From: Desulfotalea psychrophila LSv54
GTDB taxonomy: Bacteria > Desulfobacterota > Desulfobulbia > Desulfobulbales > Desulfocapsaceae
Direction: 5' to 3'
Length of the DNA: 32,000 nt
NCBI RefSeq assembly: GCF_000025945.1
Contig: NC_006138.1
Location: forward strand, 420,001 to 452,000
Below the pieces are notes generated by a model that had not been told where the DNA came from, searched no databases, and saw only the letters and a program-made list of their open reading frames with translations. Position 1 is the stretch's first letter; each line of letters starts with the position of its first letter. The translations under genes and the position numbers were made by a program. This document shows positions 993 through 28,036 of the stretch, one piece after another.

Positions 993-1712
993 ATGCTGAT
1001 TTTTAACTGCACCAGGACAGCCTGTAATTTTTTCACCGTCAGTCAGGGGGGCGTCAAAGTCTCACCGGTAGAACCAGCCCCGCACACAAACTTGGCAGAC
1101 GATGATCTGAAAAACAGTGATGGGACCAAACCTGCTCTGATGCAGTGGCTGATTCATCTGATAAGGGTGCAGGGCAAAAATATTATTCTGGCCATGGAGA
1201 TAAAGAGTCATTATTGCATGATCTTTGCGGGTCTGAAGAAGGGTGATGCCACCACCTTTATTCAACTATTTTATGAACGCCTCTTTAATAATATGCAGTG
1301 GTATGGTGAAAGTATTGGCTTTATGGATGAAACCAGCTTCCAACCAATGGCTACAAATTTCATAAAAGCCCATGACGAGTTCCGTTTTTTTGCCCGCGAC
1401 GATGCCAAAATCCAGAAAAGCATAGATAATGTGGCAAAGGACATTCGCCTCTGGGCCAGTAAGCATGACAGCTCTGGCAATGCGGCGGAACAGGCGGCAG
1501 AGTTTAACCAAAGGGTAAACAGTATCCCCCACAAAGCAGGATCCCAGCAGGGCGCCATCCCCTCTGAAGTAATGTTCATCTACTGGATCGGCCATTTTTG
1601 TAATGCTCAGGAAAAAGAGATAAAAATGGCTCGACAGCGCTTTGAAGTCCTTAAAAAAAGAGAGCTTGAACAGCTCGGACTTCTCCTTCGCAGTAAAAAG
1701 AATGACTCCTGA
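993..1712 (+). CDS. hypothetical protein (no recognised domain)
   Basis: Long ORF with no convincing competing frame; the antisense ORFs are shorter. The first ~50 codons look poorly coding, so the real start may be the internal Met at 1140 (MQWLIHL...). Confidence 0.45.
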   Translation: MLIFNCTRTACNFFTVSQGGVKVSPVEPAPHTNLADDDLKNSDGTKPALMQWLIHLIRVQGKNIILAMEIKSHYCMIFAGLKKGDATTFIQLFYERLFNNMQWYGESIGFMDETSFQPMATNFIKAHDEFRFFARDDAKIQKSIDNVAKDIRLWASKHDSSGNAAEQAAEFNQRVNSIPHKAGSQQGAIPSEVMFIYWIGHFCNAQEKEIKMARQRFEVLKKRELEQLGLLLRSKKNDS

Positions 1713-9950: not shown

Positions 9951-9983
9951 TAAAATACCTTGCCAGGTTTTTTTGCTATTTAC

Positions 9984-10425
9984 GGCCTTGTTGCATAAAT
10001 CATGAGGGAAGAAAATCATCTTCCCTCTACGCCATGCCATCTTAGCAAACAGCTTCTCGAACAGGCATTCCTAAAGCGCTAATCTTGTTCAAAGCTTTAA
10101 TCACAGCTCTACCTGCTTGACCGTTGGTGATATCCTGTGCCTTTCAATTCACCTTAACTGTTTGGGCACGCCTGCTAACAGGTGTATCAAAAGCCCGGGG
10201 ATCAATGACCATCAGGTCAAAAATTGAATTTAGAAAACCTTCAGCTCCTCTGAGAGAAAGACCGTAAATGGTTCCATCAAACAAATCATGCATCATCAGT
10301 GTGCTTGTGACTACGACCACGCTGTCCTGATGTACCAACTCTCAATCGCTTTCTTGTCCACCCAAAACGTCAACGCCGCTGCTTCAGCGCTCTGTTGTAT
10401 TCAGGCCAATTTGTGCAACAAGGCC
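9984..10425 (-). mobile_element. internally deleted IS903-group (IS5 family) insertion-sequence relic with both terminal inverted repeats
   Basis: Terminal IRs are GGCCTTGTTGCATAAATC (9984-10001, + strand) and GGCCTTGTTGCACAAATT (reverse complement of 10408-10425), close to the IS903 IR GGCTTTGTTGAATAAATC. Minus-strand frames give 'LTFWVDKKAIESWY', then 'GLSLRGAEGFLNSIFDLMVIDPRAFDTPVSRRAQTVKVN' (track ORF 10144-10338), then 'AVIKALNKISALGMPVREAV*'. These match the N-terminal and extreme C-terminal blocks of IS903 transposase. The DDE core is missing and the frames are broken. Confidence 0.8.
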
Positions 10426-10633: not shown

Positions 10634-10680
10634 TACTCCTGTAAGCTTATCCACTTTTTTAACTGACTTTTACACGTAGT

Positions 10681-11160
10681 TTATTTAAAAGTAATACTTA
10701 AAATATCAGATGTATTAACTGGCAAGGTGCCATAAGCAGCTTTGACTGAAAACGTTTGATTTTGTAATGTCCCCGACAAAACATCGCCATTCTTAAATAT
10801 AATCTTACATTCCCTTCCAATGGCATTGACATCACTTTGTTTAACATTAATGGGTGTCTTACCTGATAGTTTACGTTCGATTTTATTGTCTTGAATGACT
10901 GCTGGCTCGTCTAAAATAATATCTTCAATTTTTTTTACTTCCGAGCATGTTCCATCATTTTTATAGTTAGAGCACTTCCAATATGCATTATTCCACAAGA
11001 CTTTTTCCGGATTCCACATGCGGTTCTTGTTGAAAACACATGTACAGGGTTCCTCATCAGCTTTTTCGCCAATCTTAGATGTTCCTAGCTTGTTGGAGGC
11101 CATTGCGGCGGTACTGGCCAAAACACATAGTATAACAAATAATAGCCCAATTTTTTTCAT
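10681..11160 (-). CDS. secreted Cys-containing protein, paralog 1 (159 aa)
   Basis: Signal peptide MKKIGLLFVILCVLASTAAMA, then a Cys-containing segment 'CTCVFNKNRMWNPEKVLWNNAYWKCSNYKNDGTC', then a beta-rich C-terminal domain. Confidence 0.75.
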   Translation of the reverse strand: MKKIGLLFVILCVLASTAAMASNKLGTSKIGEKADEEPCTCVFNKNRMWNPEKVLWNNAYWKCSNYKNDGTCSEVKKIEDIILDEPAVIQDNKIERKLSGKTPINVKQSDVNAIGRECKIIFKNGDVLSGTLQNQTFSVKAAYGTLPVNTSDILSITFK

Positions 11161-11308: not shown

Positions 11309-11325
11309 ATTTGTGCAACAAGGCC
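11309..11325. repeat. solo copy of the IS903-like terminal inverted repeat
   Basis: 'atttgtgcaacaaggcc' is identical to 10409-10425. It sits exactly at the junction between the two tandem units. Confidence 0.6.
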
Positions 11326-11365
11326 GTAAGCATATCCCATTTTTTAACTGAATTTTACACGTAGT

Positions 11366-11845
11366 TTATTTAAAAGTAATACTTAAAATATCAGACGTAT
11401 TAACTGGCAAGGTGCCATAAGTAGCTTTGACTGAAAACGTTTGATTTTGTAATGTCCCCGACAAAACATCGCCATTCTTAAATATAATCTTACAGTCCCT
11501 TCCAATGGCATTGACATCACTTTGTTTAACATTAACGGGTGTCTTACCTGATGATTTACGTTCGATTTTATTGTCTTGAATGACTGCTGGCTCGTCTAAA
11601 ATAATATCTTCGATTTTTTTTACTTCCGAGCATGTTCCATCATTTTTATAGTTGGAGCACTTCCAATATGCATTATTCCACAAGACTTTTTCCGGATTCC
11701 ACTGGCGGTTATTGTTGAAAACACATGTACAGGGTTCCTCATCAGATGGTCCACCAACCTTACTGGTTCCTTGCTTGTCGGAGGCCATTGCTACGGTACT
11801 GGCCAAAACACATAGTATAACAAATGATAGTCCAATTTTTTTCAT
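11366..11845 (-). CDS. secreted Cys-containing protein, paralog 2 (159 aa)
   Basis: More than 90% identical by eye to 10681-11160. The differences cluster just after the signal peptide (ASNKLGTSKIGEKADEE vs ASDKQGTSKVGGPSDEE). Confidence 0.75.
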   Translation of the reverse strand: MKKIGLSFVILCVLASTVAMASDKQGTSKVGGPSDEEPCTCVFNNNRQWNPEKVLWNNAYWKCSNYKNDGTCSEVKKIEDIILDEPAVIQDNKIERKSSGKTPVNVKQSDVNAIGRDCKIIFKNGDVLSGTLQNQTFSVKATYGTLPVNTSDILSITFK

Positions 11846-12549: not shown

Positions 12550-13833
12550 ATGGAAGTACAAAGGTTTCAACTGCATAATATAGGCTGTTTTGAACAACTG
12601 GAAATTTTGCTCGCTCCCACAAAAGAGAACAACAGCAATATTACTGTATTTATTGGTAATAATGGTGCAGGCAAGACCTCATTATTAAAATCTTTGGCAA
12701 CATCCCTAAGCTGGTTGGTCTCTCGCATTCGAAGCGAGGCGGGCAGTGGTAGCCCTATCCCAGAACTCGTTATCCAAAATAGCAAAAACTCCGCAGCGAT
12801 TGATATTCAAGTTTCTGATAAAAATATCACTACCTCCTCTGCAAAAGATCTCTCTGCCCCCTCAACCTTTGAGTGGAGAATTGCCAAATCTCGAAAGGGA
12901 CGAAAGGGAGAACATAAGAGCCTATTACAACAGGCGAGTCTCTTGGCAAACGCCTATCGCGATCGACTCTCGGCAGATGAACAAACGGCTTTACCGCTCA
13001 TGGCTTTTTATTCTGTTGAGCGTGTTGTTATTGAAATACCTCTACGGATAAAGGGCAAGCATAGCTTTCTCCAGCTCGATGGATACGACAACTCACTACA
13101 GCAAGGAGTTGATTTCAAACGTTTCTTTGAGTGGTTCAGAAAAAGAGAGGATACAGAAAACGAATCGATTATCCCCCCTGAGATCTTGAAACAGCTACAG
13201 GAGCTTACAGAGGAAAACAGCAGCCTGCAACAGGAGTTACAAAAGCTGAATGCCTCAAACAGAGACCGACAGCTCACAGCAGTACGGACCGCCATCAGTA
13301 GCTTTATGCCCGGATTTACCAATCTGAGAGTACGAAGAAAACCACGCCTGCATATGGCCATCGACAAAGATGGAGACACCTTTGATGTAGCCCAACTTTC
13401 CCAGGGAGAAAAGTCTCTGATGACCCTGGTTGGTGATATTGCCCGACGTCTGGCCATGATGAATCCTGGACGGCAAAACCCTCTTGAAGGGGAGGGAATC
13501 ATCCTCATCGATGAGGTTGATATGCATCTCCACCCGCGCTGGCAACGTACGGTCCTTGCCAATCTGAGCAAGACCTTCCCTCATTGTCAGTTTGTGGTAA
13601 GCACCCACTCACCACTGGTGGTGAGCGATATGGCCAACACCCTCTGCTACTCTTTGGACAATGGCATGCTAAAAGAGATTAAGGGGCTCTATGGTCAGGA
13701 TGCCAATCAGGTGCTCACCATTGTGATGGACACGGCAAGTCGCTCCGAAGAGATACAGGAAAAACTGGATAGGGTGCTTGACTCTCTACAGGATGGGGAC
13801 TTAGAGGGGCTAGCTGAAAGACAAGGAGCATAA
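12550..13833 (+). CDS. ABC/SMC-like P-loop ATPase (COG3950 / AAA_15-AAA_21 type), no adjacent partner gene
   Basis: Walker A 'GNNGAGKTS', a coiled-coil insert 'LKQLQELTEENSSLQQELQKLNAS', ABC signature 'LSQGEKSLMTL', Walker B 'IILIDEVDMHLHP' and H-loop 'STHSP'. Confidence 0.85.
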   Translation: MEVQRFQLHNIGCFEQLEILLAPTKENNSNITVFIGNNGAGKTSLLKSLATSLSWLVSRIRSEAGSGSPIPELVIQNSKNSAAIDIQVSDKNITTSSAKDLSAPSTFEWRIAKSRKGRKGEHKSLLQQASLLANAYRDRLSADEQTALPLMAFYSVERVVIEIPLRIKGKHSFLQLDGYDNSLQQGVDFKRFFEWFRKREDTENESIIPPEILKQLQELTEENSSLQQELQKLNASNRDRQLTAVRTAISSFMPGFTNLRVRRKPRLHMAIDKDGDTFDVAQLSQGEKSLMTLVGDIARRLAMMNPGRQNPLEGEGIILIDEVDMHLHPRWQRTVLANLSKTFPHCQFVVSTHSPLVVSDMANTLCYSLDNGMLKEIKGLYGQDANQVLTIVMDTASRSEEIQEKLDRVLDSLQDGDLEGLAERQGA

Positions 13834-13961
13834 CAGGGCGTTTTCCCAATGTTATAAACAGGGCTAGTAACAGCTTAGATTCACATGCTCCTCCACTGCC
13901 TCAGGTCGATCTGGCAGGAGCCCTAGGTAAGAAATAGGGGTTTTACCTCAAAGAAAGGGGC

Positions 13962-14020
13962 TGAACAAAAAAAGGGCGCAATTCTGGGAATTGTGCCCTG
14001 AGTAGATGGTTGAGGTCGGC
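13962..14020 (-). repeat. att-like/terminator repeat, copy A (most diverged)
   Basis: An A-run is followed by the hairpin AGGGCGCAATTC/GAATTGTGCCCT (13973-13999) and then TGGTTGAGGTCGG (14007-14019). Read on the minus strand this is a hairpin plus T-run terminator directly downstream of the 14057 stop. Confidence 0.6.
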
Positions 14021-14056: not shown

Positions 14057-14473
14057 TTAAAAATTCTGGTGAGAGGCTATCGCGGCAAAGAGCTTTTTGT
14101 AACTTACTTGGCTAGAAACATTGACTACCGTACCATTCACCATAGTAATACCGATATCATTTCTGTTTATTGAGTTGGTTGGCTTAAAATCACTGTCAAA
14201 ATCAGCCTTCCATAACCAATTCACATCTACCCAATGTTCTATTTTTGCCATAGCACTGAAGTCATGACCTTCATAGGGCGTCACCACTGCACCCACAGAA
14301 ATTATTCTATTTTTATTGTGATAGAGAAGAACAAGGTCACCTTTCTCAATTTTATCTACTTCACTGGCTTTTCCATAAAATGCTGCAGCCTTATTTTGTC
14401 TGAGCATGTATTTAAACGCATTGGGATTACCATTCTTGTCTTTACTATTTGTATTTACTAACCAAGTTTTCAA
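14057..14473 (-). CDS. small PUA-like (EVE/ASCH-type) domain protein, 138 aa
   Basis: TTG start with a GAGGTG SD. The pattern MKTWLVNTN...'KGDLVLLYH'...'IISVGAVV'...'HWVDVNW' follows the EVE-type layout (M-x-x-W-L..., GD-x-V-x-x-Y-H, IVG, W-x-V-D-V). The fold assignment is from memory. Confidence 0.6.
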   Translation of the reverse strand: MKTWLVNTNSKDKNGNPNAFKYMLRQNKAAAFYGKASEVDKIEKGDLVLLYHNKNRIISVGAVVTPYEGHDFSAMAKIEHWVDVNWLWKADFDSDFKPTNSINRNDIGITMVNGTVVNVSSQVSYKKLFAAIASHQNF

Positions 14474-14542: not shown

Positions 14543-15145
14543 TTATTCTGCCCCAAGCAAGGCAATAGCGGCCTGTAGACGCACATGCTCGTCCTCGCTT
14601 GCCAACAAATCACAAAGAACTTTTATTGCTTCATCCCGTATCCCTTTTACTTGACTATCTTCATCCTCAGGTCGCCGAAAATCATTGTTTATAAAGTCTT
14701 CTATAAGCATGTGGTGCTGAGAAATACTTGAGAGGGTCTTACGTGCCCCGGACAAAGATTTACGCACTGGCATAGGGAGATCTTTTCGAGAGACGGTCTT
14801 GAGATGTTTGACTAAAATGAAATGCGGATTTCCTTCTGGCGAGATCTCTTTTACAAGATTATACCGACAGGTCGTCTTAGTTTTAAAAATATGCACAAGT
14901 TTTTTATCTCTGATAGAGGGCGTTAAGACTAAAGCACCCTCTGGCATATGAACAAATATATCAACCATAGACACCGAGATAGCTGATATATCTGGATAAC
15001 GACCCAACAAAGCCCTCTCTATTTCTGACCGATTTTCCCCAGTTAGATCCTTACCGCATGGCCAGCCTATACTGATGCAACCTTCTAAAAATTGTGCTTC
15101 CCGATTGATGCCGTCTGGTTTTGCTCTTAAAATTATTGCCTTCAT
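14543..15145 (-). CDS. hypothetical protein with an N-terminal beta-barrel-like (PUA-like?) module and a C-terminal HEAT-like repeat, 200 aa
   Basis: Start set at the ATG with a strong SD (AGAGGAGA). The N-terminus 'MKAIILRAKPDG..FLEGCISIGWP' and 'MPEGALVLTPS' resemble N-terminal reader modules of restriction-type proteins. The C-terminus 'SEDEHVRLQAAIALLG' is HEAT/PBS-lyase-repeat-like. Confidence 0.65.
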   Translation of the reverse strand: MKAIILRAKPDGINREAQFLEGCISIGWPCGKDLTGENRSEIERALLGRYPDISAISVSMVDIFVHMPEGALVLTPSIRDKKLVHIFKTKTTCRYNLVKEISPEGNPHFILVKHLKTVSRKDLPMPVRKSLSGARKTLSSISQHHMLIEDFINNDFRRPEDEDSQVKGIRDEAIKVLCDLLASEDEHVRLQAAIALLGAE

Positions 15146-15337
15146 AAAATCTCCTCTAAATTGATTTTCACAACCAAGGCCCCTCATGGTTCATAGTACC
15201 TCTAAAAGCGTCTTTTCGACTTCTATGAAACAACTGAACGAGAAACAATGCAAGCTTTTCTCAACCTCTTAGTTCTCCTGAGAAGGGAAAGTGAAGTTCT
15301 ATGTACATGGTGACTTTGCTTTTCTACTTACCTGTCT

Positions 15338-15430: not shown

Positions 15431-15775
15431 GAATACCTGAAAAGGTTAGTACAGGTTTATGGATAAACAGTTCAGGCTAACATGTTAGAATAAATGCAAC
15501 AAATCCTAGTTCACGAAGATCGATATGTGGTATCTTTGTTCTTGGGTGAATTGGCAGTAATTTTTTGCTTTCCATTAAACAAACCTTGGACTGAAGTGCA
15601 AGATCGGAAGCCCCATCTCCAACTCACTCACTTTTCAAATTTTAATCTGCTGTACTTACTGTACCAATCAATCATCAATTTCTCGGAACTACAACAAAAG
15701 TGCTGTAGGTTGGCCAAGTTACACACTCACAAAAACTTTTTATAACCTTGGCTAATTTAAACATTGAGGTGCAAA

Positions 15776-17848
15776 ATGAAAGAAAGAGCAATAGGGTACC
15801 TGCGAAATGCCCTTAATAAACCAGAAGCAAATTTTCGTGATGGGCAATGGGAAAGTATTGAGCAGTTGCTGAATAACAAACGGGTTTTAGTCGTTCAGCG
15901 AACAGGTTGGGGAAAAAGCATGGTATACTTTCTTGCAACTAAGCTTTTGCGTGAGCAGGGGGCTGGTCCGACCCTATTGATATCACCACTTTTATCGCTA
16001 ATGCGTAACCAAGTTGAGGCGGCTACACGAATTGGTGTTAGAGCAAAAACAATTAACAGTACCAATAATGAGGAATGGGACACCGTTCAAACAGAACTGG
16101 AAGCCAATCAAGTTGATGTACTGCTTATCTCACCTGAGAAGTTAGGTAATGATGATTTTCGACAGAATATCTTATCAACTATGGCTGATAAGGTAGGATT
16201 GTTTGTTGTGGATGAGGCACATTGTATTTCTGATTGGGGGCATGATTTCAGACCCAAGTACAGACAAATTGTACGGGTGCTCCAAGCTTTACCATCAAAT
16301 ATCCCTGTTCTTGCAACAACAGCGACTGCTAATAATAGGGTTGTAGATGACGTTAAATCGCAATTGGGTGATGACATTGAACTCATAAGAGGTTCACTTG
16401 TTCGTCAAAGCCTTAGACTTCAGAATATAACAATGCCAAGCTCTGCTGCGAGATTGGCTTGGCTTGCCCAGACCATTCCTAAACTTCCTGCTAGCGGCAT
16501 CGTCTACACTTTGACAAAAAGGGATGCTGATAGAGTCACTGAGTGGCTTCAACTAGTTAATATAGATGCTAAAGCTTACTACAATGGTGTTCCTAACAGA
16601 GAGGATCTTGAACAACAGTTATTTCATAATGAAGTAAAAGTACTGGTCGCAACAGTTGCACTGGGGATGGGCTTTGATAAGCCTGATTTAGGGTTTGTTA
16701 TCCATTTTCAAAGACCTAGTTCTGTTGTTCATTATTATCAGCAAGTTGGTCGTGCAGGGCGGGCTGTTGAAGAGGCATATGGCATTTTATTGAGTGGAAC
16801 AGAAGACGATCAGATTACGGACTTCTTTATCCGTAGTGCTTTTCCTCCACAAAAACATATATCGGAAGTAATTAGGGTGCTTGATGAATCAAATGACGGT
16901 CTATCTTCTTACTCTATGGAAAAAGTTTTGAATCTTCGGACTAAACAAATTATGAACACCATAGACTATCTTGCTGCTGAGTCACCCGCACCAGTTGTAA
17001 AAGTTGGGACAAAGTGGAATGCGACTGCCACAGCTTCAACGTATAGAATTAACCAAGAAAACATAGATGCAATCACTGCCATTCGTCGCCAAGAACAGCA
17101 GCAAATGCATGAGTACATGCAACATACTGGTTGCTTAATGGCATTTCTGCAAGATGCACTGGATGATCCAGCACCTCAAAATTGTGGAAAATGCCAAAAC
17201 TGCGCACCAGAGTTACGGCTCGATGAAAGCTACGATAATGACTTGGCCAATAAGGCGGGCCTTTTTTTGCGCCGGAGTTATCAACCCGTTAAAGCAAAAA
17301 AAAAATGGCCACCCCACAACCCGTTACCAACCTACAATTTTTCTGGCATGATACGAGAGAATTTAATAGCATCTGAGGGTCGTGCGTTAAGTCTCTGGCG
17401 TGATGCCGGATGGGGCGAATTGATTTATAAAGGGAAATATGAGGATAATCATTTTTCTGATGTCTTGGTGACAGCTTGTGTGGAAATGTTGCGAGAATGG
17501 GCACCCGAGGAGGCACCCAAATGGGTTACTTGTATACCATCTATCAACCATCCTGATTTGGTACCAAATTTCGCAAAACGTCTGGCTAGGGCGTTAGAGA
17601 TACCGTTCGTAGATTGCGTTGTAAAAGTACAAAATAATCAACAACAAAAAACTATGGAAAACAGCTTTCAACAAGCAAGAAATTTGGATGGTGTTTTTAA
17701 GGTTAATCTCGAATCTAGAGCATATAGCCCATGCTTGCTTATTGATGACATGGTTGATTCTGGTTGGACTTTCACTGTTGCGGCTGCCCTATTACGACAA
17801 GTTGGTTGCACCGCAGTTTATCCTTTAGCTCTAGCGCTGAATTCTTAA
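15776..17848 (+). CDS. RecQ-family DNA helicase fused to a C-terminal ComFC-type phosphoribosyltransferase domain
   Basis: Start set at the ATG six nt after a GAGG SD. RecQ motifs present: 'FRDGQWESI', 'TGWGKS', 'DEAHCISDWGHDFRPKY', 'ATTATA', 'QQVGRAGR', and a Zn cluster C-x16-C-x2-C-x2-C with the same spacing as E. coli RecQ. The C-terminal ~170 aa carry 'VTCIPS', 'QQK..ENSFQQARNLDGVF' and the PRPP loop 'LLIDDMVDSGWTFT'. Confidence 0.9.
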   Translation: MKERAIGYLRNALNKPEANFRDGQWESIEQLLNNKRVLVVQRTGWGKSMVYFLATKLLREQGAGPTLLISPLLSLMRNQVEAATRIGVRAKTINSTNNEEWDTVQTELEANQVDVLLISPEKLGNDDFRQNILSTMADKVGLFVVDEAHCISDWGHDFRPKYRQIVRVLQALPSNIPVLATTATANNRVVDDVKSQLGDDIELIRGSLVRQSLRLQNITMPSSAARLAWLAQTIPKLPASGIVYTLTKRDADRVTEWLQLVNIDAKAYYNGVPNREDLEQQLFHNEVKVLVATVALGMGFDKPDLGFVIHFQRPSSVVHYYQQVGRAGRAVEEAYGILLSGTEDDQITDFFIRSAFPPQKHISEVIRVLDESNDGLSSYSMEKVLNLRTKQIMNTIDYLAAESPAPVVKVGTKWNATATASTYRINQENIDAITAIRRQEQQQMHEYMQHTGCLMAFLQDALDDPAPQNCGKCQNCAPELRLDESYDNDLANKAGLFLRRSYQPVKAKKKWPPHNPLPTYNFSGMIRENLIASEGRALSLWRDAGWGELIYKGKYEDNHFSDVLVTACVEMLREWAPEEAPKWVTCIPSINHPDLVPNFAKRLARALEIPFVDCVVKVQNNQQQKTMENSFQQARNLDGVFKVNLESRAYSPCLLIDDMVDSGWTFTVAAALLRQVGCTAVYPLALALNS

Positions 17849-17863
17849 AGAATGGATTGATTT

Positions 17864-19150
17864 ATGAGTAACTATTTAACAGATGATACAAAGGCAATAA
17901 TCCTGCTTTGCGGATTCTTTGGAAAAGACAGCTCTACCAAGCCATTGTCGCAGGGAGATTACAACAAGCTTGTTGATTGGTTGATCAGTTCTGGCATGCG
18001 ACCAAAAGATTTGCTACAGCAAGAAAACATCGACCCAGCAGCAAAAGGATCAGGAATATACCAACAACGGTTAGAGGCCTTGCTCGGACGTGGAGTTCAA
18101 CTAGGCTTCGCCGTTGAGGAGTGGCAGCGTAATGGTATCTGGATTATTAGCCGAAGTGATACTGACTACCCAACACGATACAAAAATCATTTGGGTAAGC
18201 AAGCTCCGCCATTGCTTTTTGGTGTTGGTGATCGCTCGTTACTAACTGGTGGTGGTCTCGCGATCATAGGTTCTCGAAATGTAGATGAAATAGGCGGGAA
18301 TTTTACACGAGAGGTAGGTGCATTATGTGCTCAGAATAGGATGCCTGTCGTGTCAGGTGGTGCCCGTGGTGTAGATCAGTTTTCGATGACAGCGGCACTT
18401 GATGCCGGGGGCATGACTATTGGAGTTCTTGCCGATAGCCTTCTGAAAAAGAGCCTGGAACGTACTGCGCGTAAAGCAATTGCAAGGGGAAGGCTACTAC
18501 TCATTTCTGCTTGTCACCCCAATGCACGGTTCACCGTTGGAACCGCTATGGGGCGAAATAAGCTTATTTATGCCATGGCTGATTATGGTCTGGTTGTAAG
18601 CGCCGAACATAAAAAAGGCGGAACTTGGGCTGGGGCAGATGAAGAGTTAAAACGAGAACACTCTATTCCTGTGTTCGTGAGGCAAGGGAACGATGTCCCA
18701 CTCGGCAATTCAAAGCTTTTAGGCTTAGGTGCAATTGCTTGGCCAGACAAGGTTGACCATCAAAATCTAAGGGGACAGCTTACTGAGCTTTCGTCCCAAT
18801 GTGCCCAAAAGAGTACTCAGAAAAATATGAGCCTACTCGACTTTCAAGAGAGGCAAAAAGAACCGGCCAAGGAGCTCCCTAAAGCAGAGAGTATCGAATT
18901 AACCGAGTCTTCCAATGTTGTTGAAGATACTGCTGCAAAACACTCAGTCACTACAGTGTATGAAACTGTTTTGCCCCTCATATTAGAAAAGCTTGAATCC
19001 CCCACAACGGTTGACGAACTAATATCATCGCTGGATGTGGTTAAAACACAACTCAATGTATGGTTGAAAAAAGCACTTGAGGAAAAAAGAGTGGTTAAGC
19101 TGACACGTCCAGTAAAATATCAAAGGATTAGTTCGAAAGAACAGACGTAA
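17864..19150 (+). CDS. DprA/Smf-like (SLOG Rossmann) protein with a C-terminal winged-helix-like tail
   Basis: Begins 15 nt after the RecQ::PRTase stop. Carries 'YPTRYKNHLGKQAPPLLFGVGD', 'GLAIIGSRN', 'VVSGGARGVDQ', 'TIGVLADSL', 'MGRNKLIYAMAD' and 'KKGGTW', the DprA core order. An acidic linker leads to 'TTVDELISSLDVVKTQLNVWLKKALEEKRV'. Confidence 0.9.
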   Translation: MSNYLTDDTKAIILLCGFFGKDSSTKPLSQGDYNKLVDWLISSGMRPKDLLQQENIDPAAKGSGIYQQRLEALLGRGVQLGFAVEEWQRNGIWIISRSDTDYPTRYKNHLGKQAPPLLFGVGDRSLLTGGGLAIIGSRNVDEIGGNFTREVGALCAQNRMPVVSGGARGVDQFSMTAALDAGGMTIGVLADSLLKKSLERTARKAIARGRLLLISACHPNARFTVGTAMGRNKLIYAMADYGLVVSAEHKKGGTWAGADEELKREHSIPVFVRQGNDVPLGNSKLLGLGAIAWPDKVDHQNLRGQLTELSSQCAQKSTQKNMSLLDFQERQKEPAKELPKAESIELTESSNVVEDTAAKHSVTTVYETVLPLILEKLESPTTVDELISSLDVVKTQLNVWLKKALEEKRVVKLTRPVKYQRISSKEQT

Positions 19151-19406
19151 TACACTGATATAAATTACAGAAAATGCCCGGACAGAAAGTTTGTTACAGC
19201 TCACAATAAAGTTTGGGTTAACAACATAACCTATATCTTGAAAGGGATTTGCCTACGGCCCCCCCTTCTTTGACGTAGACCCGACCTAAAGGGCTCCCCA
19301 CTGTCCAGAGAGGCCGCCCAGGGGGCAATTGGAGGGATGTAAGAACAAGAGGACTACAGGGCACTGCCTGAAGACAAGCGGGGCTACTGCGGAAAGGGGA
19401 AGGCTA

Positions 19407-19492
19407 GGAAAAAAGCACAAAAAAGGGTCCAATCTCTAATTGAAGAAATTGAGCCCTGAGCAAATGGTGCGGAGGTCGGAAACGAATTAATC
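19407..19492 (-). repeat. att-like/terminator repeat, copy B
   Basis: 'aggaaaaaagcacaaaaaaggg..(degenerate hairpin)..ccctgagcaaaTGGTGCGGAGGTCGGaaacgaattaatc' aligns along its whole length with copy C (21053-21139). It lies just downstream of the 19553 stop on the minus strand. Confidence 0.6.
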
Positions 19493-19552: not shown

Positions 19553-19981
19553 CTACTCAGCGTCAGAATCTTTTTCACGGAGTACCACTGGTATTTGAGT
19601 TACTTTTTTCCAGCGTCCACCTTCACTTTTACAGGAGACTTCAAAAAAGTATCGGCCAGGGCCCGGGGCCTCTACACCTTCCACCCTTGTTCCGAAGTCT
19701 CCTCCATAGGTTCCTTCTTTAATTGTAAACTCTTGTTCACCTACTACCCCAATAGCCTTCTCTGCACTATCCAGCAAAGTTATTTTCACAGTGAACAACT
19801 CGTCACTATTTGCATCGCCCCCATCTCTGTACCACTTGGAAAAAAGCAAAAAACCTGGAAAGTGTGGACCTTCTTTTTTGTTGTAAAACCCAACTTTCAC
19901 CAGATCTTGAAGAGACATTAACCCTGTCAACTCATCTTTAATAACCCGTAAACATGCAACCGATGTTATATGTTTTGGCAT
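19553..19981 (-). CDS. hypothetical protein (142 aa), third gene of the hicAB operon
   Basis: The ATG lies 3 nt after the hicB stop. The sequence is beta-rich with no recognised motif. Confidence 0.65.
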   Translation of the reverse strand: MPKHITSVACLRVIKDELTGLMSLQDLVKVGFYNKKEGPHFPGFLLFSKWYRDGGDANSDELFTVKITLLDSAEKAIGVVGEQEFTIKEGTYGGDFGTRVEGVEAPGPGRYFFEVSCKSEGGRWKKVTQIPVVLREKDSDAE

Positions 19982-19984
19982 GCT

Positions 19985-20551
19985 TTAACCCCTAGATGAT
20001 AAATTAATAGTGTTAACAGAAGACTCAAAATCAGACTTAACAACAGAAGTCCACTCATTAAGTGATGCCCCTGGCGTTTGTCTTTTCTCATACACACCAG
20101 ATAAACTTACCTCTTGAAAAGTAGCCTCCTGCTTCATCAGTAGATCTTGATGGTGACCCATCATTTTTCCTTGATTCACAAGTATCTCATCCAACTTATC
20201 AGAAATGCCTGCTTCTTTTGCCACCCCACCAATTTGACTGACTATGTAGGTGTTAAGGGACACACCACTTTTTTCGGAACGTTCTACGAGTTCACGGTGA
20301 AGCTCTTTTCCCATACGGAGACGAACTTGCCCACTATACCCCTTATCTTCTTCTGGCTGCTTAACTTGAGGTAATGAAATCCCATTTTTCTTAAGTGAAT
20401 TAATAGCCATTTCAAGGACAATACGAGCATCCTTTAATGCCTCTTTTTGGGTTTCGCCAAAAGCAGACAAAAGAGGAAACTCAGGGAAAGTTACAACGAA
20501 ACAGCCATCTTCTTCACTCCAATGGATTTTTTTCGTAAATTTTTCTTTCAT
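19985..20551 (-). CDS. hicB: HicB-family antitoxin with an RHH DNA-binding module and a ~65-aa C-terminal extension
   Basis: 'IHWSEEDGCFVVTFPEFPLLSAFGETQKEALKDARIVLEMAI' is the HicB N-domain. 'GQVRLRMGKELHRELVERSEKSGVSLNTYIVSQI' is a ribbon-helix-helix. Separated by 1 nt from hicA. Confidence 0.85.
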   Translation of the reverse strand: MKEKFTKKIHWSEEDGCFVVTFPEFPLLSAFGETQKEALKDARIVLEMAINSLKKNGISLPQVKQPEEDKGYSGQVRLRMGKELHRELVERSEKSGVSLNTYIVSQIGGVAKEAGISDKLDEILVNQGKMMGHHQDLLMKQEATFQEVSLSGVYEKRQTPGASLNEWTSVVKSDFESSVNTINLSSRG

Positions 20552-20552
20552 T

Positions 20553-20825
20553 CTATAGCCCTTCCTCTAATGAGTTGTCGTCAATGAATTGCACAAACTT
20601 TCTTACCTGATAAATCTTAGCCATTTTTTTATCTCCTTCCCTCGGTTGGAGGTTCAAAAAATGGTATGGATCATCGTGACGTTTGTACTGTTCGTGACTG
20701 CCGTCTGTGTGGTCATGGACAAAACCAAACGCCTTAACTAGCTTTTTAAGCTCTTTAAAAGAGACACTCGCGGGACTCTTCCTCGCTTTCTTTAGCAAAT
20801 TTGTAATTTTATCTTTTTTTGACAT
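20553..20825 (-). CDS. hicA: HicA-family mRNA-interferase toxin
   Basis: From the internal Met the protein reads MSKKDKITNLLKKARKSPASVSFKELKKLVKAFGFVHDHTDGSHEQYKR..., the YcfA/HicA pattern including the conserved 'GSHEQY' His. The longer track ORF adds an unlikely hydrophobic leader. Confidence 0.8.
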   Translation of the reverse strand: MSKKDKITNLLKKARKSPASVSFKELKKLVKAFGFVHDHTDGSHEQYKRHDDPYHFLNLQPREGDKKMAKIYQVRKFVQFIDDNSLEEGL

Positions 20826-21052
20826 AAGCAGCAAACCGTCTCTTTTTACCATTAATGGTACCACATTTGGTACCAGATGAGCAATATATAGATATAGTGC
20901 ACTGTGCACAATGCGCCAAATTATATTGTAAAGTGACACAGCTCAACAAACAGTGGCGTTTACTTACATTAAAAGCCCACAAAACATACATTTTTCATCC
21001 AATCATTCAATAGTACCATATACAGAATAGATAATACCGGCACTACCTCAAG

Positions 21053-21139
21053 AGGAAAAAGCACAAAAAAAGGGCGCAATTTCTATTTCTAGAAATTGCG
21101 CCCTAATCAATTGGTGCGGAGGTCGAATTCGAACTAATC
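21053..21139 (-). repeat. att-like/terminator repeat, copy C (best preserved)
   Basis: Perfect 14-bp hairpin AGGGCGCAATTTCT/AGAAATTGCGCCCT (21071-21104), preceded by an A-run (a T-run on the minus strand), then TGGTGCGGAGGTCG (21112-21125). On the minus strand this 14-mer reads CGACCTCCGCACCA, like an acceptor 3' strand plus discriminator plus CCA. Confidence 0.65.
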
Positions 21140-21989: not shown

Positions 21990-22538
21990 CTATTTTATGT
22001 TGTAGATGCTGGCGCGTGAAACCCCGTATTCTTTGGCCAGTTCCGTAGGGCTGGTTCCCTTTGCTCTCTTTTCTTTAATTTCTGCTTTCTGAGTGCCAGA
22101 TAATATAGCTTTTCTACCAAGGTGCTTGCCATCAGCCTTAGCCTTTGCAATCCCTGCAAGCTGACGCTCTTTCCTCAGGTTCGTTTCAAATTCTGCAAAG
22201 ACTCCCAACATTTGCAAAAAAGCCCTACCGCTGGCGGTGGCTGTATCTATCGCTTGATCAATAATTTCAATAGTCGCACCTTTGCTTTCAAGCTCCTGGA
22301 CGATCTTTGATAAATCCAATACGTTTCTTGCTAGTCGGTCAAGCTTCCATACTACGAGTTTGTCACCCTCATGAATCATGTCTAAGATAAGTTGCAAGAC
22401 TCCACGTCCAGCTGTGGTTGTACCTGACTTCTTTTCTTCCCTGTACACACCCTCTGGATATTTTGCCTGTAGCTTCTGCTTTTGGAGACCTGTGTCTTGA
22501 TCTGTTGTTGATACTCGACCATAAAGAAAAATATTCAT
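21990..22538 (-). CDS. small serine recombinase (resolvase/invertase family)
   Basis: MNIFLYGRVSTTDQDTGLQ... contains the catalytic Ser motif 'YGRVST.DQ'. 'VVWKLDRLARN' is present, and the C-terminal HTH is 'TSPTELAKEYGVSRASIYN'. Confidence 0.9.
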   Translation of the reverse strand: MNIFLYGRVSTTDQDTGLQKQKLQAKYPEGVYREEKKSGTTTAGRGVLQLILDMIHEGDKLVVWKLDRLARNVLDLSKIVQELESKGATIEIIDQAIDTATASGRAFLQMLGVFAEFETNLRKERQLAGIAKAKADGKHLGRKAILSGTQKAEIKEKRAKGTSPTELAKEYGVSRASIYNIK

Positions 22539-22559
22539 TCCACGCCCTCTGTTTCTAAA

Positions 22560-22680
22560 AAGTGTCATTATTTGTATAAAAACATCTTAGACCTTTCTGG
22601 AAACAGTGTCAACAATATAAAAACAGACCTTTATGACGCATATTTTAAGGGTGTCAGAAAGGTATACCTTTTTGACGCTT
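22560..22680. promoter_or_regulatory. res-like recombination site upstream of the resolvase gene
   Basis: TGTCA-type half-sites occur at 22563, 22606 and 22652, with inverted CGTCA half-sites ending at 22638 and 22677. They include the 24-bp imperfect palindrome GTCAGAAAGGTA|TACCTTTTTGAC (22653-22676). The gamma-delta/Tn3 resolvase half-site consensus starts with TGTC. Confidence 0.5.
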
Positions 22681-22688
22681 GGTGTGAT

Positions 22689-23378
22689 TTATGGCAGAGA
22701 ACTATTAGACCAGTTGAGATGAGGATGGTTTTGTTGTGTGTCGAAGATGTGGTTTTTATTTTCTTCGTCTAGCTCTATAGGTAGGTCGGCCCAAATTGAG
22801 AGATTATTATTCCATTCGCTTTCATAAAAATTTTTAAATATATATTTAATGAAAGTGCCAAAGCTCATAGCGTGGCCCACTCCCATTCGACATGAACTTG
22901 CTTGGAAATGTAAATGTGAAGCTGGATGATCTATAGTTTGCTGCTCAACATCAAAATCGAAACGCATAGGAGACCGGAGGACAAGGTACTCTTCCCAGTT
23001 TGACATATACAAATCTAATGCTCCAAGTGGCGTTTCATTCTCTATATCATCGTTAGGAATCAGTAAAGGGCATGGCCAATACCATAGACTGTGCTTTTTT
23101 AGCTTACCTCTTTTAAATGTATAGGAAACTCTGATAAACGCACCATCTTTGAGAATCGCATGAAATGCATTGTTCTCCAATATTGAACGGTATTGAAATA
23201 ATTTACCAAATGCACCATCAGCATTGTAACAGGCACCTCTTTCATGCCTGCCCCACGTTATCATCTCGGACTCATTATCTTGCTGAAGCACTGGTATGTT
23301 GTAAAAGTACAACAAATTCCTTTCTGAAAGAATTTTAAGTATATTGATAATGGCACATTGAGTCTTCTTTACTGTCAT
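22689..23378 (-). CDS. hypothetical protein (229 aa) translationally coupled to the upstream helicase; His-rich motif 'HPASHLHF'
   Basis: The ATG lies 3 nt after the helicase stop. No domain is recognised with certainty; membership of DUF2290 is a hypothesis only. Confidence 0.75.
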   Translation of the reverse strand: MTVKKTQCAIINILKILSERNLLYFYNIPVLQQDNESEMITWGRHERGACYNADGAFGKLFQYRSILENNAFHAILKDGAFIRVSYTFKRGKLKKHSLWYWPCPLLIPNDDIENETPLGALDLYMSNWEEYLVLRSPMRFDFDVEQQTIDHPASHLHFQASSCRMGVGHAMSFGTFIKYIFKNFYESEWNNNLSIWADLPIELDEENKNHIFDTQQNHPHLNWSNSSLP

Positions 23379-23381
23379 AAC

Positions 23382-25508
23382 TTAGCTTTGATTTGGTTTA
23401 GTTGAGGTTTGATTTTTCCCTAAGCTTTCCAATAAAGATTGCAATGCAGCAGAATTACTAGGAGACAAGGTTCCATCTTCAATTAATTTGAGGATTCCTT
23501 TTGCTGATTCTTCAGCTTTACGAATTTTTTCTTTCTCTTCAGGTGTACGATCTCTGTTTATCAATCTTAATTCTGCAAGTTCTCCTTTCGTTGGAACATG
23601 GAACTTCAGCTTATAAGAATTGTCCACGGTGCGTTGGATTTCATCAATTAGGATGTCCATATTACGACCATACCCACATAGACGCACCCATGCACGAGAT
23701 CGTGTTATAGCTGTGAACAAAGTGTTGCGTAACTTAATTAATTCATACCCTTGTGCGCAATAATTTGAATTTGCAAGATAAACCATGGGAGCTTCATTTC
23801 CCTTTGCTCGGTATATACTAGAAACTACAACTGAATTACGAATAAAGAAAACATCTGACCTTGAAGATACTCCAGCAAGATGACTATCTATTCCATGTCT
23901 TTGTAATGATTGAGCAAGTAAAGGGTATTTTGTTTTTGCTGTTAATGCATTTGGTAATATTATTAGAATATCATCAGGGTCAAGCTCATCCTCAGTGATA
24001 TTTTTGTTGATTTGTTCTGCTATCCATTCATACTGTGCAATTTCATCCTCAAACTTTTTCGTAATAACAGCATCTTCTTTTGTCAATAAGTCATCAAAAA
24101 ACCTAGGGCATGAATCGCTTCGCCGACTGAGTGTTACATCAGAGTCAAAATTTAAATTTCCGCTATCTATTTGATACCCGATCTCTTGCCAAAGTGACAG
24201 TTCATCAAAGAGTTGAACAAGACCATCGTCACGATAGATTCCAAACCCTAGAGCATGAGCTAAAGTCAAAGCCCATGGAGTATTTCTGTAGCAAATTGGT
24301 AAAATAATATCTTGCTGCGGCGAGTTTTCAACATTATTAATAGAAACATTCCCATTAAATAGATGCTGTACAGAAGTCATCTGAGTATTATTTAGATTTT
24401 GAAGTTCATCGTATGCCCAAACAATTCTTTTAGGTGATTTTGTTGCTAGATAAACAAGTTGAAAAAATGGCACTGGAAGGTCTTGCGCTTCGTCTATAAG
24501 TACAGCATCGTACAGTTCTACTGGTTGCGACTTCGCATAAGTTAGTAATTCTCCACAGGCACCATGAAAAGCATTATTGTAACCATATTGATTTTTTGCA
24601 GTACCAAAATCCATTGCTGGAACATTAAGTGAGTCAGCGATAGTTGAATAAATCCCAGAAGCACTGTAACTACCCCAAGCATGCAAAATATGGAGTTTTT
24701 CAAAATTTGGTTTATCTCCAGAATGCTCAATAGAAAATCTTTCTACTAAATCAAAAAATTGTTGGCTTAGAGATCGAGTATTAAATGTAATTGCAATATC
24801 CCACTCAGGATGCTCTGCATGTAGGTACGCAGCTTTTAACGCCAGTACTACTGTCTTTCCTGATCCAGCTAACCCCCGAACTCTTTGCGCCCCTTCTGGT
24901 GTCTCTATTGCCGCTTTCTTTTGCCATTGATCCAAATTTGCTATTTGTACTTCAAGTTTTTTTAAAATAGCTCCACGTGAATCAGTTCCTTTTACATTTG
25001 TTCTTTTTTTAATCGGCTTTATTGTTGTGACCCTTTGGATGGCAGCAACTAGCGATCGAAAAAAAGATTCGTCAACAGGGGCGCACTTTGTGAATATTAA
25101 GCTAATGTTTTTGGGATAAGCAAAATAATATTTATCATTGGTTTCATTAGTAAAGCTGTTGCTAGCTGGAAAAAACGAAACTATATTTGCAGTTACACCT
25201 AAACGCCTTCCTTCTCTTAATGCGTCGTGTCTGCCTAAACTACCTTCAATTGCATAAGCTAAACTGTCTTGTTGGGCTTGAAGCTCTTCAACACAAGTTT
25301 CTATTGGTGGAAAATTAAAGGCTACCAACCCAGGCACCTTAGAAAGTAGCAAGGCCTGAACGGTTGTTGAATTATCGGCAGACGCCATTATTGGATACCC
25401 AAGGTACAAGGTTCCATCAATAGCAAGATTTTGTAATGTCTCCGAAAGTATTTTAGCCGCAGTTGAATTTTTAACATTTCCCCAAACTATATCTAACGCC
25501 ATTCCCAT
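23382..25508 (-). CDS. SF1 (UvrD/Rep-like) helicase with a ~200-aa unassigned N-terminal domain and a C-terminal extension
   Basis: Walker A 'GLAGSGKTVV', Walker B 'VLIDEAQDL', and C-terminal 'IYRAKGNEAP' and 'LFTAITRSRAW' (UvrD_C-type motifs). The start may be the second ATG at 25502, which has better SD spacing. Confidence 0.85.
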   Translation of the reverse strand: MGMALDIVWGNVKNSTAAKILSETLQNLAIDGTLYLGYPIMASADNSTTVQALLLSKVPGLVAFNFPPIETCVEELQAQQDSLAYAIEGSLGRHDALREGRRLGVTANIVSFFPASNSFTNETNDKYYFAYPKNISLIFTKCAPVDESFFRSLVAAIQRVTTIKPIKKRTNVKGTDSRGAILKKLEVQIANLDQWQKKAAIETPEGAQRVRGLAGSGKTVVLALKAAYLHAEHPEWDIAITFNTRSLSQQFFDLVERFSIEHSGDKPNFEKLHILHAWGSYSASGIYSTIADSLNVPAMDFGTAKNQYGYNNAFHGACGELLTYAKSQPVELYDAVLIDEAQDLPVPFFQLVYLATKSPKRIVWAYDELQNLNNTQMTSVQHLFNGNVSINNVENSPQQDIILPICYRNTPWALTLAHALGFGIYRDDGLVQLFDELSLWQEIGYQIDSGNLNFDSDVTLSRRSDSCPRFFDDLLTKEDAVITKKFEDEIAQYEWIAEQINKNITEDELDPDDILIILPNALTAKTKYPLLAQSLQRHGIDSHLAGVSSRSDVFFIRNSVVVSSIYRAKGNEAPMVYLANSNYCAQGYELIKLRNTLFTAITRSRAWVRLCGYGRNMDILIDEIQRTVDNSYKLKFHVPTKGELAELRLINRDRTPEEKEKIRKAEESAKGILKLIEDGTLSPSNSAALQSLLESLGKNQTSTKPNQS

Positions 25509-26348: not shown

Positions 26349-26831
26349 TCTTTTCTCCTCTCAACAGCCCAAATCCACAAATCACATTTCTATATTGCTG
26401 TTTAATCAGACATAACAATCCACTAGCATACTCTGTGTAAGTTTACAATCTTATTATAGCTTGAATGTCGTAGAATACCTTTAATAAGTACGAACATACG
26501 GTCTAGGAATATCCACCTGACGTTGCTCCAAGCAAAATAACTTGCAACACAACCCCTGTCTAGTTTATGTTGTTTTCGTTGCTGGCAAAATCCAGCAGCC
26601 GAGTTTGGACGCTCGGACGCAAACGGTGGATACATGCCACCACTATTGGTGGTTTTTTTATGCCCTTTACGGGTATACTGTATCCGTCGCATAGTCGCTT
26701 TTGGGTGACTGTGTGGGAGACCTTCGGGTCTGCCGATTCCGTTTGATCGGTCGTCCAACCCGCATAGTCGCCCTTTTTTTTGTTTGGACGCAAAAAATGG
26801 GCTTAGACCACTTCCAAACGGAGCTAGTACC

Positions 26832-27097: not shown

Positions 27098-28036
27098 ATG
27101 AACAAGGGATGGGTAAAAATAGACAGAGAACTCCTAGAACATTGGAGCTGGAACGGTGCGATTTTTTCAGAAGGTCAGGCTATTGTCGATCTGCACTTAC
27201 GGGCCAGCCACAAAACAAGAACAATTCGCCTACGTAGTGGTTTAGTGACTATTCACCGTGGACAACTGGCAAGATCCGAGAACACCCTCGCCAACGATTG
27301 GGGGTGGAGCAGAGGCAAGGTAAGGCGCTTTTTATCTCTGCTTGAACGTGACAACATCATCGGCCAGCAAAAGAACAACCAAACGACCATCATAACTATC
27401 CTCAATTACGATGTAAAAGAGGATAGCAAGAACACCACTCCTGCCCAAGGCGGTACAGCATGTGGTATACGAATAAGAAAGAAAGAAGAAAGAAGTAATA
27501 AAAGAAAAGAAAAAAAGAACACAATCCCCATCGGCGATCCTCTGCCCGACAAAGCACAAACAGTCCACCGTGAGCTTATCCCTTCTGGCTTCGCTTTTGA
27601 TACTTGGACAAAGATGCTTGCCTACCTGCGAACAAAGGGGGCCTTGGCTGGCGGAAGAATCAAAGCAATTGTTACTGAGATTGCCAAAGCAAAGGCTCTA
27701 AGCTTTTCTCCGGCCGACTGTTTAGCCTGTATGCTGCATCATGGCTGGCGTGGGTTCAAAGCCACTTGGTTATCAACCAGTGCCTTCTATCGTGAACGTA
27801 TGGCCCAAGCCGCCAACCATCATTGGCAAGATGAAACAAAGCGAACACGAAAGAAAATAGAGAGCTATGAGAAGCCACAGCCCACCAACAGGCGTCGCTG
27901 GTTATTCGATGAGAGCTATATGCTCAAGCTTGAAGGCAGGATCACACAGAAGCAACGAGACGACATCATAGCGGGGATACTCGATATCACCTCTTTCCTG
28001 TCGAGAAAAAGCACTGCTCATTGCCAAAGAGCATAG
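27098..28036 (+). CDS. replication-initiator-like protein (N-terminal winged-helix, Lys-rich linker)
   Basis: 'WVKIDRELLEHWSW....EGQAIVDLHLRASHKTRTIRLRSGLVTIHRGQLARSENTLANDWGWSRGKVRRFLSLLERDNII' follows the pattern of phage/plasmid replisome-organizer (DnaD-like) N-domains. It sits next to an ori-like region and a primase. Confidence 0.65.
   Translation: MNKGWVKIDRELLEHWSWNGAIFSEGQAIVDLHLRASHKTRTIRLRSGLVTIHRGQLARSENTLANDWGWSRGKVRRFLSLLERDNIIGQQKNNQTTIITILNYDVKEDSKNTTPAQGGTACGIRIRKKEERSNKRKEKKNTIPIGDPLPDKAQTVHRELIPSGFAFDTWTKMLAYLRTKGALAGGRIKAIVTEIAKAKALSFSPADCLACMLHHGWRGFKATWLSTSAFYRERMAQAANHHWQDETKRTRKKIESYEKPQPTNRRRWLFDESYMLKLEGRITQKQRDDIIAGILDITSFLSRKSTAHCQRA

Follow-up and report, generated by a model that had tools for sequence, protein, structure and literature searches.

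A very probable PsyrTA (RqlHI) toxin-antitoxin and anti-phage gene pair in a defence island of Desulfotalea psychrophila

Introduction

What is a RecQ-type helicase fused to a phosphoribosyltransferase (PRTase), with a DprA-like gene directly behind it, doing among the defence-like genes of a psychrophilic sulfate reducer? In this article I examine such a gene pair from Desulfotalea psychrophila LSv54, which lies in a stretch of 32,000 nucleotides (contig NC_006138.1, positions 420,001 to 452,000; hereafter the window, in whose own coordinates all positions are given). A preliminary description of this DNA had read the pair as parts of the competence machinery reassembled into a conflict system, had supposed that the RecQ fusion architecture was uncharacterised, and had named DprA-PPRT as a two-gene DprA and PRTase pair reported to act against phages. 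The answer reached here is that the pair is very probably an ordinary and apparently intact member of the PsyrTA family, also known as RqlHI, a toxin-antitoxin (TA) and anti-phage system that was acquired horizontally into a D. psychrophila defence island. The combination of a RecQ-helicase/PRTase protein with a DprA-like partner is not new, since the fusion protein had been described as RqlH in 2012 (PMC3378886) and the pair as RqlHI in 2015 (PMC4670107) and as PsyrTA by Sberro (2013) and Millman et al. (2022), and the fusion coupled to DprA was described by Iyer et al. (2017) as well. As for DprA-PPRT, it is the same as ShosTA, a sister system and not the pair in the window; Rousset et al. 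(2022) in fact cite rqlHI while treating this DprA and PRTase system of their own.

Identity of the gene pair

The operon consists of the following features:

15765..15770, + strand: GAGGTG as ribosome-binding site, read from the sequence, with 5 nt between it and the psyrT ATG
15776..17848, + strand: psyrT (rqlH), for the 690-aa putative toxin, in which a RecQ-like helicase carries a PRTase at its C-terminus
17864..19150, + strand: psyrA (rqlI), for the 428-aa DprA-like putative antitoxin

The start of psyrT is the ATG that follows GAGGTG, while the TTG at 15764 falls within the ribosome-binding site and is not the start; the annotated 690-aa D. psychrophila protein at NCBI (P0001) begins at the same place, with 100% identity and coverage. 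On the same strand, psyrA starts 15 nt past the psyrT stop codon, the toxin gene thus standing upstream of the antitoxin gene, and GenBank names the two only 'RecQ family helicase' and 'DprA'.

The PADLOC models of PsyrTA are matched along practically the entire length of both proteins: PsyrT matches the PsyrT model (PDLC03928) with an E-value of 4.3e-293 and 971.8 bits, aa 2-688 aligning on 5-683 of 689 model positions, and PsyrA matches the PsyrA model (PDLC03927) with 1.5e-131 and 437.2 bits, aa 5-421 on 3-396 of 398. Far behind, as the next-best PADLOC models, come the RecQ-like DpdF models, at no more than 299 bits, for PsyrT and ShosA, at 91.5 bits, for PsyrA. The novelty once claimed for the architecture fails, since an existing defence model is matched in full, the very finding that the preliminary description itself had named as speaking against it.

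The comparison with Escherichia coli was made with a locus between gntU and yhgN (NZ_CP019944.1, 5592-8890), whose genes are annotated as a 'RecQ family helicase' and 'DprA' and which is rqlHI. The annotated start of rqlI in that locus is probably too far upstream, because it overlaps rqlH by 94 nt. PsyrT is 50% identical to E. coli RqlH and collinear with it over aa 9-690, and PsyrA is 36% identical to RqlI and collinear over aa 5-413. The residues tested in E. coli, K49, D148 and D663, are kept in the window protein as K47, D146 and D658, with D657/D658 corresponding to D662/D663. At the nucleotide level, blastn of the operon against E. coli genomes gave only short stretches of the helicase core at ~70% identity, and megablast against plasmids gave no match.

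With the known PsyrTA/RqlHI system the window pair shares its gene order, toxin upstream and antitoxin 15 nt downstream, its order of domains (RecQ-like ATPase, linker, four-cysteine zinc domain and ComF-like PRTase, without an HRDC domain), a DprA-like partner with a C-terminal helix-turn-helix (HTH) domain, and its lengths, 690 and 428 aa in the window and ~690-698 and 400-431 aa in E. coli. The differences are confined to sequence divergence, the psychrophilic sulfate-reducing host and the insertion site, which is an island bounded by tRNA-like scars in the window and the interval between gntU and yhgN in E. coli; in architecture no difference was seen.

Other families were considered and set aside, and the rival readings of the pair, whether as a Dpd component, as competence machinery, as a repair helicase or as an addiction module, are all much less likely than PsyrTA. 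For the Dpd system and its DpdF helicase, PsyrT reaches 152.3 bits against a cut-off of 550 (NF041063), the PADLOC DpdF matches are weaker than the PsyrT match, and no other Dpd protein is found among the neighbours. ShosTA, which is the DprA-PPRT of Rousset et al. (2022), comes closer in kind, being also a DprA-like antitoxin with a PRTase toxin, a TA-type phage defence and a cause of DNA-damage and filamentation phenotypes, with PRTases reported to belong to the same defence-associated clade. However, ShosT has no helicase whereas the toxin here carries one, and RqlI co-precipitates with RqlH, while ShosA counteracts ShosT with no direct binding to it; in the profile searches ShosT matched only the C-terminal domain (E 7.5e-4, 17.4 bits) and ShosA scored 91.5 bits on a protein that gave 437.2 bits with PsyrA.

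Domain anatomy of PsyrT and PsyrA

The domains of the two proteins lie as follows:

15830..16810, + strand: superfamily 2 (SF2) RecQ-type ATPase/helicase core of PsyrT (aa ~19-345), with motif 0, Walker A K47, DEAH D146 and QQVGRAGR
16811..17062, + strand: linker specific to RqlH (aa ~346-429), joining the ATPase to the zinc domain and aligning collinearly with E. coli RqlH
17063..17203, + strand: RecQ-type tetracysteine zinc-binding domain (aa 430-476; Cys 453, 470, 473 and 476), matched by RecQ_Zn_bind
17213..17845, + strand: ComF-like type-I PRTase (aa 480-690), with the phosphoribosyl pyrophosphate (PRPP) loop LLIDDMVDSGWT at aa 654-665 and ARNLDGVF at aa 634-641
18122..18673, + strand: DprA/SLOG Rossmann-like domain of PsyrA (aa 87-270), with GSRN and SGGARGVD, from Pfam and PDB sequence matches
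18956..19126, + strand: C-terminal winged-helix (HTH) domain of PsyrA (aa 365-421), predicted by AlphaFold

The complete RecQ core and zinc cluster that the preliminary description had noted are present: motif 0 is FRDGQ (aa 20-24), TGWGKS occupies aa 43-48, and DEAHCISDWGHDFRPKY, which includes the DEAH box (aa 146-149), occupies aa 146-162, followed by QQVGRAGR at aa 322-329 and the C-x16-C-x2-C-x2-C cluster at aa 453-476. Pfam recognises DEAD (5.9e-27, aa 22-192), Helicase_C (9e-13, aa 240-330) and RecQ_Zn_bind (3e-05, 25.1 bits against a 25-bit cut-off, aa 430-476), and the NCBIfam model TIGR00614 (recQ_fam) places PsyrT in the RecQ family with 259.7 bits, over its cut-off of 219.8. In the same Pfam search the linker at aa ~346-429 had no domain and no HRDC domain was found in PsyrT. 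Taken together, the Pfam matches of PsyrT and PsyrA are far beyond chance. Mycobacterium smegmatis RqlH, with which Ordonez, Unciuleac & Shuman (2012) defined a new RecQ-like clade (PMC3378886), has the same order of domains, namely an ATPase at aa 1-346, a linker of ~90 aa, a tetracysteine zinc domain and a ComF-like C-domain with a PRTase, and no HRDC. Canonical RecQ of E. coli has in common with PsyrT the SF2 motifs 0-VI, the DEAH box and an identical C-x16-C-x2-C-x2-C cluster; the difference is that PsyrT has a linker of ~85 aa between ATPase and zinc domain, and a PRTase in place of the HRDC. As a candidate family it was rejected, PsyrT scoring 296.1 bits against a cut-off of 640.2 (TIGR01389) and 210.8 against 1015 (NF008279), with no HRDC found.

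The C-terminal domain had been called a ComFC-like type-I PRTase with an intact PRPP loop, and this description stands. Pfam Pribosyltran matches aa 599-680 of PsyrT (1.5e-08) and TIGR00201 (comF) matches aa 600-687 (E 6.6e-07), and a sequence search of the PDB with the domain returned only the PRPP loop of PRPP synthetases (E ~0.04), which is why a fold search was chosen. The AlphaFold model of the isolated domain (aa 480-690) has a mean predicted local distance difference test score (pLDDT) of 77.5, and its Foldseek matches in the PDB are type-I PRTases, among them APRT, PurF, Helicobacter pylori ComF (7p0h) and ShosT (8zvd); ComF 7p0h and ShosT 8zvd gave the longest alignments and the top query TM-scores, 0.45-0.46, the E-values being marginal throughout (1e-3 to 1e-4). 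The predicted fold thus supports a type-I PRTase that is ComF/ShosT-like in extent, and no closer assignment, and together with TIGR00201 it makes 'ComF-like type-I PRTase' a fair label, in agreement with the description of 2012.

The gene 15 nt downstream is DprA-like as had been claimed: PsyrA has GSRN at aa 136-139 and SGGARGVD at aa 164-171, its Pfam matches are DNA_processg_A (1.1e-35) and the SLOG cluster4 family LDcluster4 (6.4e-08), and its sequence matches in the PDB are DprA and ShosA. The model of the whole protein is poor (mean pLDDT 58.5) and only its C-terminal winged helix was used. For this tail, which had been suspected to be winged-helix-like, AlphaFold gives a pLDDT of 82-87 over aa 365-421 with helices at 365-376, 383-390 and 394-406 and strands at 410-413 and 418-421, and the last ~60 residues are confidently predicted to form a winged helix of three helices and a beta-hairpin. 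Canonical DprA was set aside for PsyrA at 85.7 bits against 191.15 (TIGR00732) and 57.9 against 495 (NF008007).

With both partners in view, it is natural to ask whether they serve natural competence, ComFA-, ComFC- and DprA-like functions acting together on incoming single-stranded DNA (ssDNA). There is similarity at the level of domains, to ComF (TIGR00201, and 7p0h by Foldseek) and to DprA: the PRTase fold with the R-x-N-x-x-G-x-F motif and the DD of the PRPP loop is common to both sets, as is the DprA Rossmann domain, and the ComFA/ComFC/DprA parallel was explicitly treated by Russell & Mulvey (PMC4670107) and by Iyer et al. Against this, the motor is of the RecQ and not the ComFA type, both proteins fall far under the family cut-offs (29 against 234 bits for comF, 86 against 191 bits for dprA), rqlHI is present in E. 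coli that are not competent (PMC4670107), and the scanned open reading frames (ORFs) of the window include no com or pil genes, as the preliminary description had said. A role in DNA uptake is extremely unlikely. As a family, ComF/ComFC was rejected for PsyrT on a domain-only match (TIGR00201, 29.4 bits against 233.55) in a protein where the domain is fused to a helicase with no com genes nearby.

Conservation and spread

The pairing is strict. A count of how often a DprA-like gene follows the fusion, which had been proposed as a check, found that in 10 of 10 loci from different phyla (nine related genome loci and E. coli) the gene right behind psyrT is a psyrA homologue, at a gap of ~15-20 nt. 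The other neighbours in the window recur in none of the nine related loci, so that the unit consists of exactly two genes; the two divergent genes upstream of psyrT, considered as extra components, were dropped with a homologue in 0 of 9. The homology search with PsyrT gave more than 8000 candidate homologues, and PsyrT has relatives, 69-75% identical, in Chlorobi, Cyanobacteria, Myxococcales, Verrucomicrobia, Spirochaetes and Gammaproteobacteria, which, being spread across phyla at such identity, are a signature of horizontal transfer.

The flanks of the nine related loci (91 ORFs) contain matches to BREX proteins (two members each for BrxA, BrxC, PglX and PglZ, and one for BrxHI), to restriction-modification (R-M) systems of types I and II, to the DISARM-type DrmD/DrmMII and to several PADLOC candidate systems (PDC). 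These neighbours, the defence genes of the window itself and the full-length PADLOC matches of both proteins uphold the earlier view that this is a conflict system rather than a competence system. In E. coli, a rqlHI match is found in 1650 of 5426 complete genomes (~30%), always chromosomal, the pair having a fixed site there between gntU and yhgN.

Function and proposed mechanism

The family identity, the domain anatomy, the critical residues, the strict pairing, the horizontal spread and the defence-island context are observations made on this locus and its relatives, whereas helicase activity, PRTase-dependent toxicity, interaction of PsyrT with PsyrA and protection from phages are known from the literature on orthologues. 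M. smegmatis RqlH is a 3'-5' translocase and helicase whose activities are independent of the C-domain (PMC3378886). In E. coli F11, Russell & Mulvey (2015) found that the genotoxicity of RqlH, seen as SOS induction and filamentation, needs the PRTase domain, that D663A removes toxicity while the helicase mutants K49A and D148A aggravate it, and that RqlI, with its homology to DprA and its C-terminal HTH, counters RqlH and co-immunoprecipitates with it (PMC4670107). Millman et al. (2022) included PsyrTA, 'also called RqlHI', among the TA systems that protect from phages, citing Sberro (2013) for the TA function, and report that the psyrA deletion was not transformable and was not obtained.

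The mechanism with the best support is the TA/abortive-type one already published, in which PsyrT would be the toxin, its RecQ-like 3'-5' DNA helicase motor tethering a ComF-like type-I PRTase as the toxic effector, and PsyrA, a DprA-like Rossmann/SLOG protein that ends in a winged helix, would bind ssDNA and be the antitoxin. In the uninfected cell PsyrA would be bound to PsyrT and, together with the helicase domain, silence the PRTase. Infection might then free the PRTase, whether because phage ssDNA or replication intermediates titrate PsyrA away or because its resupply stops, and the freed enzyme would use PRPP in a way that disturbs nucleotide or DNA metabolism, with DNA damage, SOS induction, filamentation and replication arrest as the result and the multiplication of the phage aborted. 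The trigger and the PRTase substrate I infer only by analogy with ShosTA, for which the precedents are ssDNA-sensitive binding of ShosA to RecA, instability of the antitoxin after host shut-off and a toxin dependent on PRPP.

In a variant of this scheme the target of the PsyrT PRTase would be DNA: the RecQ motor of PsyrT would lay ssDNA bare, the PRTase might, for example, attach phosphoribosyl groups to the bases of this ssDNA, and PsyrA would compete for it through its DprA domain. Russell & Mulvey had already floated a DNA-acting PRTase as speculation (PMC4670107), and ShosT is reported to act on free nucleobases. The variant concerns the family as a whole and not the locus in the window, where nothing favours it over the metabolic model, and I regard it as rather unlikely.

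Several points weigh against an anti-phage PsyrTA system in D. psychrophila. Expression and activity of the pair in that host are putative, and a search of the PDB found no solved structure of the PsyrT C-domain or of a PsyrTA complex. Within the family, the fixed chromosomal site in E. coli is no obvious mobile hotspot, rqlH often occurs without rqlI in Gram-positive bacteria (PMC4670107), and a study of E. coli NILS69 as native host detected no protection against the tested phages, either by deletion of PsyrTA or by expression in K-12. As of late 2025, moreover, ShosT was the sole characterised defence PRTase. Finally, RqlH of M. smegmatis was studied as a helicase of the repair type, and such a role had been suggested for it in mycobacteria without RecQ (PMC3378886).

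The last of these points leads to a reading in which PsyrT is a housekeeping helicase for repair or recombination of the host chromosome, a substitute for RecQ, with the DprA-like protein as its loader or regulator. That RqlH is a bona fide 3'-5' DNA helicase agrees with this, as do the loading of RecA by DprA-family proteins, the binding of RecA by ShosA and the constant position in E. coli. However, the window pair shares with other defence genes an island of low GC content that is bounded by scars, its relatives are patchily distributed across phyla at ~70% identity, PsyrT falls under the RecQ equivalog cut-off (296 against 640 bits), and in the E. coli orthologue it is the PRTase that is genotoxic, so a housekeeping role is very improbable.

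The island around psyrTA

PsyrTA as a defence module is in keeping with the DNA in which it lies. GC content is 47.6% in the left, core-like part of the window and 43.3% in the psyrTA operon, which means that the island DNA, once described as AT-rich, is so only mildly. Its neighbours include a PtuA-type ATPase, HicB/HicA (the adjacent hicAB noticed earlier), a serine resolvase and a DUF2290 protein with a helicase, and they are parted by copies of a repeat:

13930..14010, - strand: degenerate third copy of the repeat, from a three-way alignment; possible left boundary of the module
19406..19492, - strand: 87-nt repeat at the right boundary of the psyrTA module, a terminator hairpin with tRNA-3'-end-like sequence; possible attachment (att) scar
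21053-21139, - strand: second copy of the 87-nt repeat, in direct orientation and 78% identical to 19406-19492

The repeat contains a GC-rich terminator hairpin, which is followed by sequence resembling a tRNA T-loop, acceptor stem and CCA end. An exact 14-mer, TGGTGCGGAGGTCG, occurs 2 times where 0.06 are expected, and a 19-nt exact match, ACAAAAAAAGGGCGCAATT, lies at 13965-13983 and at 21063-21081. The copies divide the island into PtuA, then two unknown genes with psyrTA, then an unknown gene with hicBA, and then the resolvase with the DUF2290-helicase pair. The att-like scars that the preliminary description had proposed are therefore plausible by virtue of these tRNA-end-like repeats; no intact tRNA was found within the window. 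This layout suggests serial integration of modules at a tRNA att site, the psyrTA module lying between two copies.

An alternative is that the pair serves chiefly for addiction or stabilisation, in which case post-segregational killing would keep the island in place and no direct anti-phage role would be involved. Its orthologues do behave as a TA pair, the scar-bounded mobile module stands beside a second TA pair, HicAB, and a resolvase, and E. coli NILS69 showed no phage phenotype. On the other hand, Millman et al. observed protection from phages by PsyrTA and homologous pairs adjoin BREX, R-M and DISARM-type genes, and the two roles are not mutually exclusive; a pure addiction module is unlikely.

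Turning to the individual neighbours, the Septu-type PtuA ATPase at 12550-13833 (+) matches PADLOC PtuA (8.2e-150) and also a retron type I-A ATPase model, and its gene stops just before the degenerate tRNA-like scar. No ORF for a PtuB/HNH partner was found between 11.8 and 14.1 kb, and PtuA may be an orphan or a truncated system. Within the same module as psyrT and divergent from it are two genes on the - strand, at 14057-14473 (138 aa) and 14543-15187 (214 aa); neither protein has a match in Pfam or PHROGs, and the 138-aa protein has a weak match to the PADLOC candidate PDC-S02 (E 8.7e-06). The hicBA region at 19553-20939 (-) lies between the two best-conserved tRNA-like repeats. Its HicA toxin domain is aa 61-112 of a long ORF whose likely start is an internal ATG near 20825, and after it come the HicB antitoxin of 188 aa and a co-oriented 142-aa gene without an assigned family (19553-19981, -). 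The neighbour proteins of 214, 142 and 165 aa found nothing in PHROGs, Pfam or PADLOC. Beyond the serine resolvase (21990-22568, -) is a Helicase+DUF2290 system, anti-phage according to Rousset et al. (2022), with the DUF2290 protein at 22689-23378 (-; PADLOC 7.8e-79, Pfam 5.6e-100) and its UvrD-like helicase at 23382-25508 (-; PADLOC 'Helicase' 3.8e-230).

Further features lie towards the two ends of the window. On the right, a C4 antisense RNA at 26698-26773 (+), an immunity RNA of the P1/P7 type (Rfam RF01695, 49.9 bits against a 45-bit gathering score), precedes a DnaD/O-like replication initiator at 27098-28036 (phrog_2514, 4.7e-21) and an 828-aa primase at 29460-31946 (phrog_1139, 2.3e-82), and these suggest a prophage- or satellite-like element. 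At the left island edge, where GC is low (35-39%), there is a tandem duplication of 300 nt (10641-10940 and 11326-11625; 96% identity, spacing 685 nt) that yields two 159-aa paralogues (ORFs 10681-11160 and 11366-11845, -) with signal-peptide-like N-termini and no family match, bracketed by a 21-nt inverted repeat at 9980-10000 and 11309-11329. In the core-like left part a DUF6933 protein at 993-1712 (+) matches the PADLOC candidate PDC-S63 strongly (E 2.9e-75).

Significance

With this locus a psychrophilic deltaproteobacterium joins the hosts of a widespread defence/TA system that is already catalogued and that PADLOC or DefenseFinder would annotate automatically, and the window around it is a tidy example of a defence island whose modules are parted by tRNA-end-like scars. 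Like any well-behaved orthologue, the apparently intact D. psychrophila one could serve for the biochemistry of PsyrTA, and if the PRTase of this family did act on DNA itself, defence effectors that modify DNA would gain a new kind.

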